In this document: piece by piece, positions 10,150-17,492 of the stretch
How positions within the stretch are numbered: the stretch's first letter is position 1
How the letters are laid out: each line of letters opens with the position of its first letter
DNA from: Rhodospirillaceae bacterium
Lineage (GTDB): Bacteria; Pseudomonadota; Alphaproteobacteria; UBA7985
Direction: 5' to 3'
Length of the DNA: 46,820 nucleotides
Assembly: GCA_002700865.1 (NCBI GenBank)
Contig: PAFB01000123.1
Location: forward strand, 1 to 46,820
Program-made: the position numbers and the translations under genes
The notes under the pieces: model-generated
What the model saw: the letters and a program-made list of their open reading frames with translations, nothing else
The model's database searches: none
What the model was told of the DNA's origin: nothing

Positions 10150-11415
10150 TCACACCGCCTGGCGACCCGACGCAAGGGTCACGCCCTGATTTTCGGCCAA
10201 AAAAGCACCCGCCAGATAGAGCGATCCACAGACAAGAATCAGGCCCGGCGGTGCGTCGCGCAGGGTGCGGAGTGCCGCTTGGATCGATGGCGCAGTCGCA
10301 ACCTGTGCGGCGCCCATGGCGCGCGCGGCCTGCGCGGCGGCATCGGCGGTGAGAGTGACAGCGGCGCCGGGAATTTCCACGGCCAGTGCGCGCTCGACGC
10401 GGGGCAGCAGCGGGGCGACAAATCCTTGCGCGTCTTTGGTTTCCAGCAGGCCATAGACCAGATAGACTGGTTGATCCGCAGGCAAACTGTCAGCGATGGC
10501 CATGCCCGCATTGGCGTTGTGCGCGCCATCAACCACCAGCCGATGACGCCCTTCGCCCGCCGCGTGCCAGAGCGCGCCCGCCTCGATGGTTTGCATGCGG
10601 GCGGGCCACTGAGCCTGTCGCATGCCGCGTCCGATGTTGAGCGGATCAATGCCCAGATAGCGCGCGGCGGCAGAGGCCAGCGCTGCGTTGGTCCGCTGAA
10701 AATCACCGGCAAGGCCCAGTTTGGCGTTCTTGGAAACTGGATTAACGGGGAGCGCTTCGGTGCCGCGTTGCCGTGCTTCGTCGAGCAGTACAGCGGTTAC
10801 GGCGTCAACCTGTGGCACGAAGTAGGCGCGCACGCCGGGCTTGAAGATGCCCGCTTTTTCGCGCGCTATGGCCTCAATGGTGTCACCGAGAAAGTGCTGG
10901 TGATCCACATCAATCCGCGAAATCAGGGAGACTTGAACCGCTTCGGCAGGCAGGATGTTGGTGGCATCCAGCCGGCCTCCCAAACCGGTCTCCAACAGGA
11001 CATAATCAGCCTCGTTTTCTGCAAAGGCCAAGAACGCGGCGGCAGTTGTCAGTTCGAAGAACGTGCCAGGCTGATCGCCATTGGCGGCTTCGACGCGCTC
11101 CAACACCGCAAGCAGCGCGGCGTAGCTGATGGTCTCACCCCTCAGTTGGATGCGCTCGGCAAAGCGGACCAAGTGGGGGCTGGTGTAGACGTGGACGGTC
11201 TTGCCAGCGGCTTCGAGCATGGCTTTCAGGAAAGCCAGTGTCGAACCCTTCCCGTTGGTCCCGGCAACGTGGATTGCAGGCGGCATGCGCCGTTCAGGGC
11301 GGCCCAAATCTTCCAGCAGCGCGTCCAGACGGTCGAGCGACAAGTCGATAAGCTTGGGGTGCAAAGCAAGAAAGCGGTCAAGCGCCGCTTTGACGCCTGC
11401 GTCTTCGTGCATCAT
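10150..11415 (-). CDS. folC: Bifunctional folylpolyglutamate synthase / dihydrofolate synthase
   Basis: Mur-ligase P-loop HVAGTNGKGST and about 420 aa. The ATGA overlap with the accD stop matches the conserved accD-folC pairing. Confidence 0.9.
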   Translation of the reverse strand: MMHEDAGVKAALDRFLALHPKLIDLSLDRLDALLEDLGRPERRMPPAIHVAGTNGKGSTLAFLKAMLEAAGKTVHVYTSPHLVRFAERIQLRGETISYAALLAVLERVEAANGDQPGTFFELTTAAAFLAFAENEADYVLLETGLGGRLDATNILPAEAVQVSLISRIDVDHQHFLGDTIEAIAREKAGIFKPGVRAYFVPQVDAVTAVLLDEARQRGTEALPVNPVSKNAKLGLAGDFQRTNAALASAAARYLGIDPLNIGRGMRQAQWPARMQTIEAGALWHAAGEGRHRLVVDGAHNANAGMAIADSLPADQPVYLVYGLLETKDAQGFVAPLLPRVERALAVEIPGAAVTLTADAAAQAARAMGAAQVATAPSIQAALRTLRDAPPGLILVCGSLYLAGAFLAENQGVTLASGRQAV

Positions 11416-12353
11416 GCCTGATCGAAGCTCGCAATCGGTTCGTCTTCAGTCATGGCGGGGTGATTATTTTCCGCGCTTGGCTCACTCGCCTCCGCGCGGC
11501 CCGGAACACCACGCAACAGCCCGAACAGCATGATCAACCGTCCACGCAACTCCAACCGGTCAACGACTTGATCAACCATGCCGTGCTCTTGCAGGTATTC
11601 GGCAGTCTGGAAGTCATCGGGCAGCTGCTCGCGGATGGTTTCCTCGATCACCCGACGGCCTGCAAAGCCAATAACGGCATTCGGTTCTGACAGGGTAATG
11701 TCGCCCAGCATGGCAAAGCTTGCCGTGACGCCGCCTGTGGTCGGGTTGGTGAGCAGGACGATGTAGGGCAGGCGGGCATCGCGCATGCGCTCTACAGCGA
11801 TAATGGAGCGCGGCATTTGCATCAGGCTCAGTATGCCTTCCTGCATCCGTGCACCACCGCTGGCGGGGATCACCAGAAGGGACGCGTTGTGCTTCACGGC
11901 TTCTTCGGCGGCAAGGATCAGCCCCTCACCCACCGCGCGCCCCATGGACCCGCCCATGAAAGCAAAGTTAAAGGCCGCAATAATTACGGGACTGTCGCCC
12001 ATCGTGCCTTTGGCGACCACGACAGCGTCTTTTTCTTCCGTCTTGGACTGATACTCGCGCAGTCGGGCGATGTAAGGCTTCTTGTCTTTGAACTTGAGCG
12101 GATCAGCCGGCATTTCCGGCTGGTCCAGTCGCAGGTACTCGCCGTCGTCAAACAGGCTTTCCAACCGCGCGGTCACACTCATGCGATGATGGTGCCCGCA
12201 GTGGGTGCACACCTGCAGATTTTCTTCCAACGCCTTGTGGAACAGCATCTGGTCGCAAGATTGGCACTTCGTCCAGAGATTGTCCGGCGTTTCTTTTCGG
12301 TTGCCCACCAAGCGCTGAATGCCGGGACGGACGTGACGGGATAGCCAGTTCAT
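11412..12353 (-). CDS. accD: Acetyl-CoA carboxylase carboxyltransferase beta subunit
   Basis: N-terminal Zn ribbon CQSCDQ..CTHCGHH followed by the carboxyltransferase domain (GGSMG, SGGARMQEG). Confidence 0.95.
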   Translation of the reverse strand: MNWLSRHVRPGIQRLVGNRKETPDNLWTKCQSCDQMLFHKALEENLQVCTHCGHHHRMSVTARLESLFDDGEYLRLDQPEMPADPLKFKDKKPYIARLREYQSKTEEKDAVVVAKGTMGDSPVIIAAFNFAFMGGSMGRAVGEGLILAAEEAVKHNASLLVIPASGGARMQEGILSLMQMPRSIIAVERMRDARLPYIVLLTNPTTGGVTASFAMLGDITLSEPNAVIGFAGRRVIEETIREQLPDDFQTAEYLQEHGMVDQVVDRLELRGRLIMLFGLLRGVPGRAEASEPSAENNHPAMTEDEPIASFDQA

Positions 12354-12369
12354 AAAACCTCAGATGGGG

Positions 12370-13185
12370 TTAGCGTACACCTTGTGAAAGGGTCTTGGTG
12401 AAGTCTAGCACAGCTTTGACCAACTCTGGCTTCGGACGGCCTTCGTCGTCGAGGTTGTTCTCGATCTGCCGCACGATGGCCGACCCCACCACTGAGGCGT
12501 CAGCCACGGACCCGATGTCGCGGACCTGTTCGGTCGTGTTGATACCAAAACCCACGGCGATTGGCAGGTCAGTAAACCGCTTGAGCCGGGCAACGGCGTC
12601 CTCAACCGCTTTTTGGTTCGCCGAAGCCGCACCCGTAATGCCCGTGATGGAAACGTAGTAGACAAAGCCGGAAGTGTTGTTGAGCACCGTCGGCAACCGG
12701 GCTTCGTCGGTTGTCGGTGTGGCAAGTCGGATGAAGTTCATGCCGGCTTCGTTCGCGGGAATGCACAACTCGTCGTCTTCTTCGGGTGGCAAATCAACGA
12801 CAATCAGCCCATCGACCCCCGCGGCCTTGGCGGCAGCGAGGAATCGGTCAACGCCGTAGATGTAGATGGGGTTGTAGTAGCCCATGAGGATCAGCGGCGT
12901 GTCCGGGTCGTCTTTGCGGAACGCCTGCACCATCTCCAGCGTTTTGGGCAGCGTCTGTCCACCCTTGAGCGCGCGCTGCGCCGCAAGCTGGATGGCAACG
13001 CCGTCGGCCATGGGGTCGGTGAAACACATGCCAAGCTCGATGATATCAGCGCCCGCCGCGGGCAAGCCTTTGAGGATGGCGAGGCTGGTGTCCATATCCG
13101 GGTCGCCGGACATGATGTAAGACACAAAACCCGCGCGACCTTCGGCCTTCAGCTGAGCGAACTTGTTGTCAATCCGAGTGGTCAT
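12370..13185 (-). CDS. trpA: Tryptophan synthase alpha chain
   Basis: [19 protein letters not shown] and a GFGI-type motif. Overlaps the trpB stop by 4 nt. Confidence 0.95.
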
Positions 13186-14420
13186 TGAGTGGTTTCTCCC
13201 ATGACGTCGGCCATGTCGAAACCGAGGTGTTTTGCAACGGTGAAAATGTCCTTATCGCCCCGACCACACATGTTCATAATCATGATGTGGTCTTTAGGCA
13301 GTTCTGGAGCGATTTTGGCGACGTGGGCGAGGGCGTGCGAAGGTTCAAGGGCCGGGATGATTCCTTCGGTGCGGCAGCACAATTGGAAGGCTTCCAGCGC
13401 CTCGTCATCCTTGGCGTAGACGTATTCAACCCGTCCGATATCGCGTAGCCAAGAGTGTTCCGGACCAATACCGGGATAGTCCAGACCGGCTGAAATCGAG
13501 TGTCCTTCGATAATCTGCCCGTCCTCGTCCTGCAGCAGATAGGTCCGGTTGCCGTGCAGCACGCCAGGTTGTCCGCCGGTCAGCGAAGCGGCATGGTCTT
13601 CGCCTTCCAGCCCCAATCCACCAGCCTCGACACCAATGATGCGCACGTCGGTATCATCGAGGAAAGGGTGAAACAGTCCCAGCGCGTTGGAACCACCGCC
13701 GATGCAGGCGACCAGCGAGTCTGGCAAGCGGCCTTCGCGCTCAAGCATCTGCTGCTTGGCTTCGGTGCCGATAACTGATTGAAAATCGCGAACCATCGCG
13801 GGGTAAGGGTGCGGGCCGGCGGCCGTGCCGATGATGTAGAAGGTATCCTCGACGTTCGTCACCCAATCGCGCAGCGCTTCGTTCATTGCGTCCTTGAGCG
13901 TGCCGGAACCGGAAGTTACCGGAACGATCTCAGCGCCCAGAAGCCGCATGCGGAAGACGTTCGGGGCCTGACGCTCAACATCAGTCGCGCCCATGTAGAC
14001 CGTACAGGGTAAGCCGAACAGCGCGCAGACAGTCGCCGTCGCGACCCCGTGCTGACCGGCGCCAGTCTCTGCGATAATCCGGGTTTTGCCCATGCGTCTG
14101 GCCAGCAGGATCTGGCCCAGGCAGTTGTTAATTTTGTGCGCGCCGGTGTGGTTCAACTCATCCCGTTTGAAGTAAATCTTCGCGCCACCGAGTTCCTTAG
14201 TGAGACGCTCAGCCAAGTACAGGGGGCTGGGACGGCCAACGTAGTCTTTCGCCAGCATGTTGAACTCTTCCCAGAACGCAGGGTCCGGCTTTGCAGCACC
14301 CCATTCACGTTCAAGATCGAGGATCAGAGGCATCAGGGTTTCGGCGACGAAGCGTCCGCCAAAAATACCGAACAAGCCGCGCTCGTCCGGTCCGGTCTTG
14401 AAAGAGTTTGGCGTCGACAT
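13182..14420 (-). CDS. trpB: Tryptophan synthase beta chain
   Basis: FGx[25 protein letters not shown] and GGGSNA motifs. Confidence 0.95.
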
Positions 14421-14466: not shown

Positions 14467-15924
14467 TTACGCGCGAGCAACTGCGGCTAAGAAGGCTCTG
14501 ATCTTCGCAGCGTCCTTAGTGCCGCGTTCACCGTCTTTTTCGACGCCTGAAGAGACATCGACGTAGGTGGGTTGGGTCACAGCGATGGCCTCCGCGACGT
14601 TTTCGGGCGTTAAGCCGCCAGCGAGCATCCACGGCGTATTGCCGATTTTCGCCTTTGCCAGCACGCGATGGTCAAAGCCAAGAGCATTGCCGCCAGGCAA
14701 TTCCGCGTCCTTAGGCGGCTTGGCATCGAAAAGCAGGCCGTCCGCTGCTTTGCGGATGTCCGCTACGGCGGCGAGGTCGCTTTCTTCGGCAACGGAGACA
14801 ACGGCGATGACGGGCAAGCCTGTATGGGCGCGGATCGCCGCAAAGCGCTCTGCGCCTTCGTGGGCGTGGACTTGCAGCATATCGAGATCGACGGTGGCCA
14901 GCAGGGTGTCAAGAAAAGCGTCTGTTGGTTCCACCACCAGCCCGACGCGGCTGATCCGCCCTTTGGCCTGCTCGCACAGAGCGGCGGCGGTTTCCGGGCT
15001 GACGTTGCGGGGGGACTTTTCGAAGAACACAAAACCCACGTGGGTTGCGCCATTGCTGATGACCGCTTCGAGCATCTCCGGGGTCTTGATGCCGCAGATT
15101 TTGGCGTAGCAGCGCGCGGGCAGCTCAACACCATCGCTCAGAATACGGTCTGCGATCAGCCAAGTGACGCTCAGAAACACAACCAGCGCCACGCCGGAAC
15201 TGAGCACAGCATGGTAAGCGCCCAAAGTGGTAAACAGCGGCAGGTTGAACACCCAGGCTGAAAGGCCCGCGCTTAACACCAGCAAGCCAGCGGTCCAAAG
15301 CGCCCGCAAGCCGCCGCTGGCGCGCCAGGCGTGAAAGGTGAAGGCCTTGCGGGGTCGGCGATGCCTGAGCGGGACGACCGCCCAGGCTCGAACGAAAAAG
15401 TAGGCGACCAAAACGCCGCTGATGGCGATGACGCCGAGCAAGGCGTTACGGTTCACGGCCTGCCGATCCAGCGCAGGGGACGCTTCAGCTTCGACCCCAA
15501 TGGCGGCAAGTTCCCGCGGGTCGTTGCTGCCGTATTGGATAAAGTCTCCCACGGCGCTGCCCAAACTGCCCCAGAGCGTCGCGCTGTCGCCGTAAGTCAG
15601 CAGCGAGCCGACCATGGTCAGGCCAATCCATCCGAAGATGGTTGCAAAGATAATGCAGAACCCTAGCACCGCAGAACGCAGGGCAGCGGCGGACCAGAAG
15701 GGGGCCGGGACATCTCGACCACCGCCCAGCTGCTTCCGGCGCTGCGCCATCAGGCCGGTCATCTCCCATGCTGCCGCATGATACAGCAAGGTGACAACAC
15801 ACAGCCCGTAAATCGCGTTTTTCAGGTCGAGCAGGCCTGTTTGAGCCCCGAGGTACACGGCAGCAGGTGCCACGGCTGCGAGGCCGAAGATCAGGACTTG
15901 GGATGCGGTGCGTAGAGCCGTCAT
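14467..15924 (-). CDS. trpF: Fusion ORF: ~270-aa polytopic membrane domain (N-terminal) plus complete phosphoribosylanthranilate isomerase TrpF (C-terminal ~211 aa)
   Basis: The C-terminal part carries TrpF motifs: KICGIK, HVGFVFF..SPR, LPGGNALGFD, LAGGL, VDVSSGVE. The preceding ~270 aa has several long hydrophobic helices and lies in the same frame with no stop. No ATG/GTG/TTG lies in frame just upstream of KICG. Confidence 0.8.
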   Translation of the reverse strand: MTALRTASQVLIFGLAAVAPAAVYLGAQTGLLDLKNAIYGLCVVTLLYHAAAWEMTGLMAQRRKQLGGGRDVPAPFWSAAALRSAVLGFCIIFATIFGWIGLTMVGSLLTYGDSATLWGSLGSAVGDFIQYGSNDPRELAAIGVEAEASPALDRQAVNRNALLGVIAISGVLVAYFFVRAWAVVPLRHRRPRKAFTFHAWRASGGLRALWTAGLLVLSAGLSAWVFNLPLFTTLGAYHAVLSSGVALVVFLSVTWLIADRILSDGVELPARCYAKICGIKTPEMLEAVISNGATHVGFVFFEKSPRNVSPETAAALCEQAKGRISRVGLVVEPTDAFLDTLLATVDLDMLQVHAHEGAERFAAIRAHTGLPVIAVVSVAEESDLAAVADIRKAADGLLFDAKPPKDAELPGGNALGFDHRVLAKAKIGNTPWMLAGGLTPENVAEAIAVTQPTYVDVSSGVEKDGERGTKDAAKIRAFLAAVARA

Positions 15925-15952: not shown

Positions 15953-16774
15953 CTACACCCGCCGCGCGCCCGGCGCCCAGCCAGTACGGTTCACGAAGCA
16001 GACCAGATTAACGATGGTAAAAACAGCAACCCGCAGCAGAAACAGAGCCTGCGTCAGCAGCAAAACACCGAAGTAGCTCGGGCCGAAGACCGGGTAAGAC
16101 GCCGCGCCAGCCTGCAGCGCCAGTTGCGCCACCACCAGGGGCAGTGCAAACACCAGATTGAGACCGAGCAGCAAAAGCGTAACGCCACCGGTCGCCCGCG
16201 TGCTGTCGCCAAACGTGTAGGGCGCGCCAACCGCAGCCGCAGCGATGACAAAGCTGAAACGGACATACAGAAACAGATGGAGCAATGCTGGAATGGCAAT
16301 CATGAAGGGTGCCAGTTGCGCGTTGGGTAAGTTATCGCGGAACAACAGATAAGCGACAAAACCGCCACCAATCAGCAGCGCACCAACAAGGTAAAAGACC
16401 ATCAACCGCAAAATCACGGCACGGTAAGAGTCCCGCCACTCTTCATTCATCAGCACCTTGCCTGAACGTGATCCCACACCCAGCAGGCGCGCTACGTGCG
16501 TGGTGTAGTAGGCTCCGATGAACACTTCGAGGATGATCAGGTTGATCACGTCGATGATAATCGCATCGGCGCTGGCAACCAGATTTCTGGAACCTCGAAA
16601 GTCGAGCACAAGGGCTGTGATAAAATCGATGAGCACCGCGAGGATAAACGGGATCAGCGCAATGCCGAGCAAGCGTTGCCATTGACCGAGCAAACCATCG
16701 ACAATGATCTGACGCACAACCCGGCCCGCCGACAAAGGCGGGAACTGTCCCATCAGGCGGATCGGCTTAACCAT
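15953..16774 (-). CDS. Polytopic membrane protein of unknown function
   Basis: About 6 hydrophobic helices. I place the start at ATG 16774 (MVKPIRLMGQF..), which overlaps the pyrF stop by 8 nt. The track's longer ORF to 17071 runs antisense-frame through pyrF and is Arg/Pro/Ser-rich junk. Confidence 0.6.
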   Translation of the reverse strand: MVKPIRLMGQFPPLSAGRVVRQIIVDGLLGQWQRLLGIALIPFILAVLIDFITALVLDFRGSRNLVASADAIIIDVINLIILEVFIGAYYTTHVARLLGVGSRSGKVLMNEEWRDSYRAVILRLMVFYLVGALLIGGGFVAYLLFRDNLPNAQLAPFMIAIPALLHLFLYVRFSFVIAAAAVGAPYTFGDSTRATGGVTLLLLGLNLVFALPLVVAQLALQAGAASYPVFGPSYFGVLLLTQALFLLRVAVFTIVNLVCFVNRTGWAPGARRV

Positions 16775-17492
16775 GGGCCAACTCGTCCAGAATGGTTTGC
16801 GTGGAAGCGCGGGGGTCTGAGGCGCGGGTGATGGGTCGGCCGATGACCAGCGATGTCGCGCCAGAGCGCTTGGCCTGCGCCGGTGTCGCAACACGGTTTT
16901 GGTCGTCTGCCTTGGCACCGGCAGGGCGGACCCCCGGGGTGATAAACGTGCCCTCGGGCAAAGCCGCATGCAGGCTTTTGACCTCCAGCGGAGAGCAGAT
17001 AAAGCCAGTGATGCCACTGTTGCGCGCCAGGGTGAAAAGCCGCTGAACCCGCTGTGCCGGGTTGGCGTCAAGCACCCCCAAACCGGTTAAGTCGTGTTCA
17101 TTCATGCTGGTCAGCACAGTGACCGCCAGAAACTGAAAATCGTCTCGCTCCAAGGCTGGCAAACCGGCGAGCATCGCCTCGCCACCTGCTGCATGAACTG
17201 TCGTCACCCGCACGCCCATGTCGGCAATGCGCGCGGCTGCGGACTGAACCGTATTGGGGATGTCGTGGAGCTTCAGGTCGAGAAAGATCGGATGGTCTTT
17301 GGCGAGCTTGCGCACCAGCGCGGCGCCAGACTGGTAGAACAGCTCCATCCCGACTTTGTAGCCGACGTTCAGACCCGCTAAGTCCCCCATCAGCGGCGCA
17401 ACGTCCGGCTCACCCATATCCAGCGCGACAAACAAGGGCGGGAGGGTTGACTGGCTTCGGTCGTTTTGCTGCTGCGGCTGCTGCGTTGGCAT
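16767..17492 (-). CDS. pyrF: Orotidine 5'-phosphate decarboxylase
   Basis: LFVALD, FLDLKLHDIPNTV and a C-terminal GRPI motif. Confidence 0.9.
   Translation of the reverse strand: MPTQQPQQQNDRSQSTLPPLFVALDMGEPDVAPLMGDLAGLNVGYKVGMELFYQSGAALVRKLAKDHPIFLDLKLHDIPNTVQSAAARIADMGVRVTTVHAAGGEAMLAGLPALERDDFQFLAVTVLTSMNEHDLTGLGVLDANPAQRVQRLFTLARNSGITGFICSPLEVKSLHAALPEGTFITPGVRPAGAKADDQNRVATPAQAKRSGATSLVIGRPITRASDPRASTQTILDELAHG

Follow-up and report, generated by a model that had tools for sequence, protein, structure and literature searches.

The enzymes of the tryptophan pathway are soluble proteins, and the known fusions among them join pathway enzymes to each other. The locus studied here raises the question whether one of these enzymes, the phosphoribosylanthranilate (PRA) isomerase TrpF, can also occur as one domain of a protein that spans the membrane. 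In a stretch of 46,820 nucleotides from an alphaproteobacterium (Rhodospirillaceae bacterium, contig PAFB01000123.1; the whole stretch is referred to as the window), positions 14467-15924 of the minus strand form one open reading frame (ORF) of 485 codons that starts with ATG and ends with TAA. It is the same single ORF that had been reported in an initial annotation, which saw about six hydrophobic helices in the first ~270 amino acids and a complete TrpF in the last ~211 and which offered two alternatives: a genuine membrane-tethered enzyme or the loss of the stop codon of a membrane gene upstream. As detailed below, there are six helices according to hydropathy and AlphaFold2, and TrpF extends over residues 273-485 with both catalytic residues present. 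The two alternatives are both right and belong to one story: the fusion is fixed, and in relatives an overlapping gene is found upstream of trpF. We consider it quite probable that the locus encodes one membrane-anchored TrpF protein that stems from the merger of overlapping genes and has since become fixed in the genus.

Conservation of the fused reading frame

Relatives were searched in 40 genomes, including ten others of the genus. The same frame without any internal stop is present in 10/10 of these other genus genomes (identity 74-84%), and the fusion is thus conserved in the closest relatives. In one of them (G006), the fused gene is divided between two contig ends; the 9 other coding sequences (CDSs) were recovered complete, and each has exactly 485 codons, the same ATG and no indel. 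This conservation of the frame is far more than chance would give. The ratios of nonsynonymous to synonymous substitutions (dN/dS, Nei-Gojobori), calculated for the 45 pairs among ten CDSs, have medians of 0.124 (residues 1-272), 0.077 (TrpF) and 0.195 (linker). Since these values are low at a dS of ~1-1.6, both halves have long been maintained as protein-coding DNA in this frame. The genus genomes are metagenome-assembled genomes (MAGs) from several independent marine projects, with the public labels Alphaproteobacteria bacterium, Rhodospirillaceae bacterium and Geminicoccus sp. MED756/SP156. Throughout the genus, there is neither a stop codon nor a conserved start codon at the junction of the two halves. 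Two separate genes are found only in the sister genera, and this dates the fusion and does not refute it.

The TrpF domain

The C-terminal part of the protein matches the Pfam family PRAI (PF00697) over residues 274-479 (131.6 bits, cut-off 22.7; profile positions 1-191 of 193) and the NCBIfam TrpF equivalog NF002295 over residues 273-484 (262.8 bits, cut-off 216). Cys277 and Asp400 correspond to Cys7 and Asp126 of the Thermotoga maritima TrpF, which we take to be the general base and the general acid, respectively, and both residues are invariant in the 11 sequences of the genus. As compared to monofunctional TrpF (T. maritima, PDB 1LBM/1NSJ), the C-terminal 213 residues are full-length, including the phosphate-binding region GGL...VDVSSGVE, and the trpF-trpB-trpA block is shared; however, the monofunctional enzyme is a soluble protein of ~200 amino acids, whereas TrpF of the window has no start of its own and is preceded by 272 in-frame residues with six transmembrane helices. 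In TrpC-TrpF (NF006945; Escherichia coli TrpCF, PDB 7ETX) and TrpF-TrpB (NF010376), TrpF is likewise joined to a protein encoded next to it. In these proteins the partners are pathway enzymes, whereas the partner in the window is a membrane domain that contains neither an indole-3-glycerol phosphate synthase nor a PALP domain, and both trpC and trpB exist as genes of their own. A bifunctional TrpC-TrpF was considered and rejected: the TrpF half alone matches NF006945 (103.6 bits, cut-off 380), and PF00218 is absent. The separate trpC gene is located elsewhere in the genome. In the window's genome it lies on two contigs (C156:9137-9541, profile positions 1-133; C144:18514-18882, positions 131-253), and this suggests a gap in the assembly and not a disrupted gene.

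The fused gene is the only gene matching PF00697 in the window's genome (G000; a MAG of 160 contigs, 73% complete) and in four genomes of the genus that are 94-98% complete (G001, G005, G008 and G009). Thus, a second, soluble trpF was not found by PF00697 in any of these genomes; a PriA-type HisA substitute was not part of this search. Since the fused gene is the sole match and Cys277 and Asp400 are intact, the fused protein is expected to serve these organisms as their functional PRA isomerase.

The membrane domain

Six long transmembrane helices are predicted both by Kyte-Doolittle hydropathy and by two AlphaFold2 models, and an amphipathic helix is additionally present in the loop of residues 112-158 (see Table 1). 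The loops differ strongly in charge: there are 7 D/E versus 2 K/R in loop 109-158, and 7 K/R versus 0 D/E in loop 182-207. Taken together, 14 K+R are found in loops 2 (58-79) and 4 (182-207), the N-terminus and the linker, as compared to 3 in loops 1, 3 and 5, and this asymmetry holds genus-wide. According to the positive-inside rule, such a pattern suggests that both termini are cytoplasmic. The initial annotation had asked whether TrpF is cytoplasmic; it is predicted to reside in the cytoplasm, on the same side of the membrane as its substrate. The membrane domain alone is modelled with confidence by AlphaFold2 and has a predicted local distance difference test (pLDDT) score of 79.7 and a predicted template modelling (pTM) score of 0.74. 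The invariant polar motifs in the loops and in the second helix as well as the purifying selection point to a domain that is more than a passive anchor and that probably keeps the function of an ancestral separate protein.

The family of the membrane domain was addressed by sequence and fold searches. Residues 1-272 have no match in Pfam even at E <= 1, and none in NCBIfam. When 5.8 billion proteins were searched with a word index, all relatives of the domain were proteins of 485-492 amino acids with PF00697; they form eleven clusters at 90% identity (ENA, NCBI, Logan), and each cluster has this size and carries PF00697. Among 1.84 billion representative proteins, an exhaustive search with a profile returned the cluster of the genus itself and 3 fragments, and nothing else. 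The membrane domain was found only in this genus, and always fused to TrpF. With the model of the domain, Foldseek gave no match in the PDB at E <= 0.001. The best VIA-align match is CysZ (PDB 3TX3, chain 3tx3_B; Z 7.8, 185 residues aligned), followed by folds of the Pns1/CTL type (Z 6.3-7.3; 218 residues aligned at Z 7.3), but VIA-align itself reports Z values of this size as common for unrelated helical bundles, and the domain has no EI24/CysZ match in Pfam at E <= 1. These closest structural matches at noise level are therefore a lead rather than an assignment. A fold search in the ESM Atlas found the domain's own cluster and one cluster of a hypothetical protein of 255 amino acids (template modelling scores 0.49/0.52), and the best score of the ESM Atlas features was 0.79, which is below the lead threshold of the tool.

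Origin of the fusion

The organization of the locus in the relatives suggests how the fusion may have come about. In four genomes of the same family (G011-G014, genera g2 and g3), a membrane gene A and a membrane gene B precede trpF-trpB-trpA, and in G012 pyrF lies directly upstream of gene A. In the genomes read from the other three families of the order (G016-G021), a polytopic membrane gene is located directly upstream of trpF, and with the exception of G018 this gene ends with the family A motif RTGWRPG. In same-family genomes and in the MAGs of loci L029 and L030, the stop codon of the membrane gene next to trpF lies past the trpF start, with an overlap of between 4 nt (ATGA) and 37 nt, so a small indel would fuse both genes. 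The window contains a separate gene for a membrane protein of 273 amino acids that belongs to family A, and the fused N-terminal domain would be the positional counterpart of gene B.

A comparison of the genus profile with gene B of G012 (L041:4361-5191) by hhalign gave 155 collinear columns with a score of 35.3 (P = 1.9e-4, probability 48%), whereas shuffled controls reached at most 23.0 (150 global shuffles) and 28.2 (150 block shuffles, in which the pattern of hydrophobicity was retained). The collinear region extends from the second transmembrane helix to the basic loop after the fourth, and the two proteins have several features in common: LRS before the third helix, G.xM..L..Y.D after it, N...ALIA.SG in the fourth helix and VPLR..RP in the next loop. 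The homology to gene B of G012 is suggestive, not conclusive. In the 22 genomes of the order, no further relative of gene B of G012 was found, and the membrane proteins upstream of trpF evolve very fast. The unfused membrane genes between pyrF and trpF, i. e. gene B of G012 and family A, thus resemble the fused domain in their position, their polytopic nature and their size of ~265-320 amino acids, but they differ as they are separate genes with a stop that overlaps the trpF start, and their similarity to the domain is marginal (G012) or undetectable (others). The idea that the N-terminal domain is a tandem paralogue of the adjacent 273-amino acid protein was also considered; this is not supported by BLASTP (E 0.043 over 29 amino acids) or hhalign, which aligned 20 columns at P 0.0077 and 43 columns at P 0.11, and the resemblance of the motifs R.WAV.P and R.SFV.P is short and not significant.

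From these observations, a likely course of events can be proposed. The ancestor of the genus may have had a membrane gene for ~270 amino acids upstream of trpF, overlapping and probably translationally coupled to it; this gene would have lost its stop codon or been shifted into the frame of trpF, and after the fusion the original trpF start codon would have decayed. Judged from the distribution among the genomes, the fusion probably arose after the genus had split from its sister genera and before the radiation of the genus. The gene would now be translated into a single inner-membrane protein of ~52 kDa, in which the six-helix domain with cytoplasmic termini holds a catalytically intact TrpF on the cytoplasmic face of the membrane. 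The tethered TrpF would convert PRA to 1-(o-carboxyphenylamino)-1-deoxyribulose 5-phosphate for the steps encoded by trpBA, as the sole PRA isomerase of the cell, and the tethering would be tolerated or even useful.

The merger need not have been neutral. The fusion may have been selected because the membrane domain works with TrpF, e. g. by arranging tryptophan synthesis at the membrane or by linking it to the transport or sensing of one of its metabolites, as expected if fused proteins act together ("Rosetta stone"). Other fusions from metagenomes, which were sought by querying long proteins with the TrpF part, bear on this idea. The proteins P0028 (461 amino acids) and P0038 (465 amino acids) are fusions of a membrane domain with TrpF, and their N-terminal domains are 71% identical to each other; P0038 is encoded at locus L045, directly after pyrF. 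Another such fusion, P0021 (374 amino acids), occurs in two samples, and its gene follows pyrF and a gene for a membrane protein of 295 amino acids (L043 and L044). These proteins have a polytopic domain in frame with TrpF and share the context pyrF-X-trpF-trpB with the window gene. Their N-terminal domains are not related to that of the genus by BLAST, and therefore they represent separate events. They differ from the window gene by an ATG or GTG that is kept 3-5 codons before KICG, so they may still make free TrpF. These fusions are known from very few sequences.

The recurrence of membrane-TrpF fusions with unrelated N-terminal domains in at least two further lineages is thus one argument for functional coupling. 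The others are the presence of membrane genes between pyrF and trpF wherever the upstream DNA could be read in the order (G011-G014 and G016-G021), their overlap with the trpF start, and the invariant polar motifs in the loops of the fused domain. However, overlapping co-directional genes fuse easily, and the recurrence may reflect opportunity only. Indeed, metagenomes contain candidates for PyrF-TrpF fusions (PF00215 and PF00697, 398-455 amino acids; P0023, P0026, P0036, P0041 and P0046), possibly frameshift artefacts, that fit the pyrF-trpF adjacency common in alphaproteobacteria and suggest that adjacency alone, rather than shared function, can drive fusion at this locus. Moreover, no fold or family assignment of the domain hints at a tryptophan-related activity. 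Finally, a universal linkage of family A to trpF had to be rejected: in G025, G027 and G031, in which trpF was also located, family A lies away from trpF, and in many alphaproteobacteria pyrF directly adjoins trpF with no membrane gene in between. The linkage is thus regional, not universal. On balance, we regard selection for functional coupling as rather unlikely, and it seems similarly doubtful that the fast-evolving membrane proteins of the pyrF-trpF region in this order and in other alphaproteobacteria are partners of TrpF whose overlap, probable translational coupling and repeated independent fusion mark an unrecognised membrane-associated step, scaffold or sensor in the synthesis of tryptophan. 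If they were, the genus of the window would have the most committed form, with TrpF made membrane-bound only.

One further protein, P0032 (481 amino acids; a PF03458/UPF0126 membrane domain and TrpF), was not counted among the fusions. Its middle part of ~100 amino acids is rich in Arg, Pro and Thr and resembles out-of-frame read-through, and the protein is probably a frameshift or gene-calling artefact.

The junction and the gene product

The initial annotation had noticed that in the ~20 codons before KICG only CTG and ATT occur as possible starts, and indeed in-frame ATG, GTG or TTG codons are absent from the window between codons 250 and 283. Codon 275 encodes the Lys of KICG, and a start codon appears again only with ATG284, which is already past the catalytic Cys277. 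Across the genus, codons 257-283 contain no canonical in-frame start that is conserved. The TrpF proteins of the outgroups start with MAKVKICG or similar, whereas the genus reads ..LPARC(Y/Q)AKICG, and the residues L268, P269, R271 and C272 of the linker are invariant. No Shine-Dalgarno motif is conserved at the junction in the genus, and the synonymous sites of codons 262-275 vary freely, so an internal ribosome-binding site is not conserved.

These features bear on the possibility that the gene yields two products, and that TrpF is mostly a soluble protein of ~22 kDa that results from a non-canonical internal start near the junction or from cleavage of the linker. Residues 269-277 of the linker have a pLDDT <50 and are probably flexible, and the independent fusions described above keep an ATG or GTG close to KICG. 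Moreover, one locus of the genus (L003) has a GGAG 5 nt before GTG266. On the other side, the genus has no conserved start or Shine-Dalgarno motif, the synonymous sites are free, the invariant residues L268, P269, R271 and C272 would be needless in a dispensable leader, and the frame has stayed free of indels over a dS of ~1-1.6. We therefore consider it improbable that a separate soluble TrpF is the main product.

Several points weigh against a single membrane-anchored protein derived from two merged genes. Concerning its origin, the similarity of the N-terminal domain to the upstream gene of the sister genus is weak, as the hhalign probability given above indicates, and the g2 proteins in the same position have no similarity to the domain that is detectable by hhalign. 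Concerning the structure, the full-length AlphaFold2 model is moderate (pLDDT 72, pTM 0.50), and the predicted topology derives from hydropathy and charge counts rather than from a dedicated predictor. Concerning the product, the window has the near-cognate codons ATT261, CTG262 and CTG268 upstream of KICG, and in a few members of the genus codon 261, 266 or 270 is GTG; initiation at non-canonical codons is thus possible, and proteolytic release of TrpF is conceivable as well. All genomes of the genus are MAGs of uncultured bacteria, and the single product of 52 kDa is a prediction from their sequences.

Finally, it is hardly credible that a stop codon was lost or the frame shifted between two genes through a mistake in sequencing or assembly: although the MAG of the window is fragmented, the ten other genomes are species-level lineages with 16-26% protein divergence, include MAGs of independent projects and all have the same frame, and the nine complete CDSs of exactly 485 codons with purifying selection on both halves rule out such an artefact.

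Implications of a probable membrane-tethered TrpF

A whole marine genus appears to make its sole PRA isomerase only within an integral membrane protein. This raises the question why tethering a central biosynthetic enzyme to the membrane is tolerated or even favoured; as the intermediate PRA is labile, localisation or channelling could matter. The membrane-fused TrpF as sole isomerase is a real, conserved architecture that is of moderate rather than high surprise. Moreover, the fusion provides a handle on an uncharacterised membrane family beside trpF that has no Pfam entry or solved relative. Finally, the locus is a clean and datable case of overlapping genes that merge and then lose the internal start, and the stages can be seen across lineages: separate genes with an overlap of 4-37 nt, a fusion with an internal start, and a fusion without it. 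A full-text literature search found no published description of a membrane-anchored TrpF.

Gene neighbourhood and further observations

The coordinates of the fused gene, its parts and its neighbours are listed in Table 1. The genes form a block on the minus strand in the order pyrF, 273-amino acid membrane gene, fused ORF, trpB, trpA, accD and folC, and the canonical trpFBA-accD-folC block recognized in the initial annotation is thus confirmed by the identification of trpB, trpA, accD and folC downstream on the same strand.

Table 1. Features of the fused trpF gene and of its neighbourhood in the window.
Feature	Position	Strand	Remarks
Whole fused ORF	14467..15924	-	six-helix membrane domain and TrpF; 485 codons + TAA
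N-terminal membrane domain, residues 1-272	15109..15924	-	no family match in Pfam/NCBIfam; dN/dS 0.12
TM1 (transmembrane helix 1), ~residues 2-28, predicted inside to outside	15841..15921	-	hydropathy, AlphaFold2, charge counts
TM2, ~residues 34-62; invariant Y48, H49, W53, E54	15739..15825	-	AlphaFold2, alignment
TM3, ~residues 79-111; invariant FGWIGL.MVGSL	15592..15690	-	hydropathy, AlphaFold2, alignment
Acidic loop 112-158, predicted periplasmic; invariant LWGSLG and YGSNDPR	15451..15591	-	charge, alignment
TM4, ~residues 159-181	15382..15450	-	hydropathy, AlphaFold2
Basic loop 182-205, predicted cytoplasmic; near-invariant VPLRHRRP..AFTFHAW	15310..15381	-	charge, alignment
TM5, ~residues 206-226	15247..15309	-	hydropathy, AlphaFold2
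TM6, ~residues 236-261, predicted cytoplasmic end	15142..15219	-	hydropathy, AlphaFold2
Junction and linker, residues 260-274 (..RILSDGVELPARCYA)	15103..15147	-	AlphaFold2 pLDDT <50 at 269-277
TrpF (PRA isomerase) domain, residues 273-485	14470..15108	-	profile matches; dN/dS 0.08; predicted cytoplasmic
Catalytic Cys277 codon	15094..15096	-	aligned to Cys7 of T. maritima TrpF
Catalytic Asp400 codon	14725..14727	-	aligned to Asp126 of T. maritima TrpF
pyrF	16767..17492	-	PF00215, 157 bits
Separate 273-amino acid polytopic membrane gene (family A)	15953..16774	-	homologues upstream of trpF, same order
trpB	13182..14420	-	PF00291; 46 nt downstream of fused ORF
trpA	12370..13185	-	PF00290, 317 bits
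accD	11412-12353	-	within 10150..12353 stretch
folC	10150-11415	-	within 10150..12353 stretch

The family A gene ends 28 nt upstream of the fused ORF. Its likely start is the ATG at 16774, which overlaps the pyrF stop (ATGGTTAA); a listed ORF of 372 amino acids that begins with a TTG at 17071 (15953-17071, minus strand) would overlap pyrF by ~300 nt, and the ATG is the likelier start. The protein contains the motifs R.SFV.PA and SW..T.G and the C-terminal RTGW.PGA, and it belongs to no Pfam or NCBIfam family. The family A profile has matches in 23/101 genomes sampled across the class. A second, diverged copy is present on another contig of the window's genome (G000:C107:11461-12303, minus strand; E 1.5e-14 to the A3 profile), and in an alphaproteobacterial MAG four tandem paralogues of 276-315 amino acids (L029:472-4002, plus strand; 25-34% identical to one another) are located directly upstream of trpF. 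This locus appears to be prone to tandem duplication. Opposite to the fused gene, there are two antisense ORFs of 180 and 197 amino acids (14567-15261, plus strand) without matches, of the kind that is commonplace in GC-rich coding DNA.

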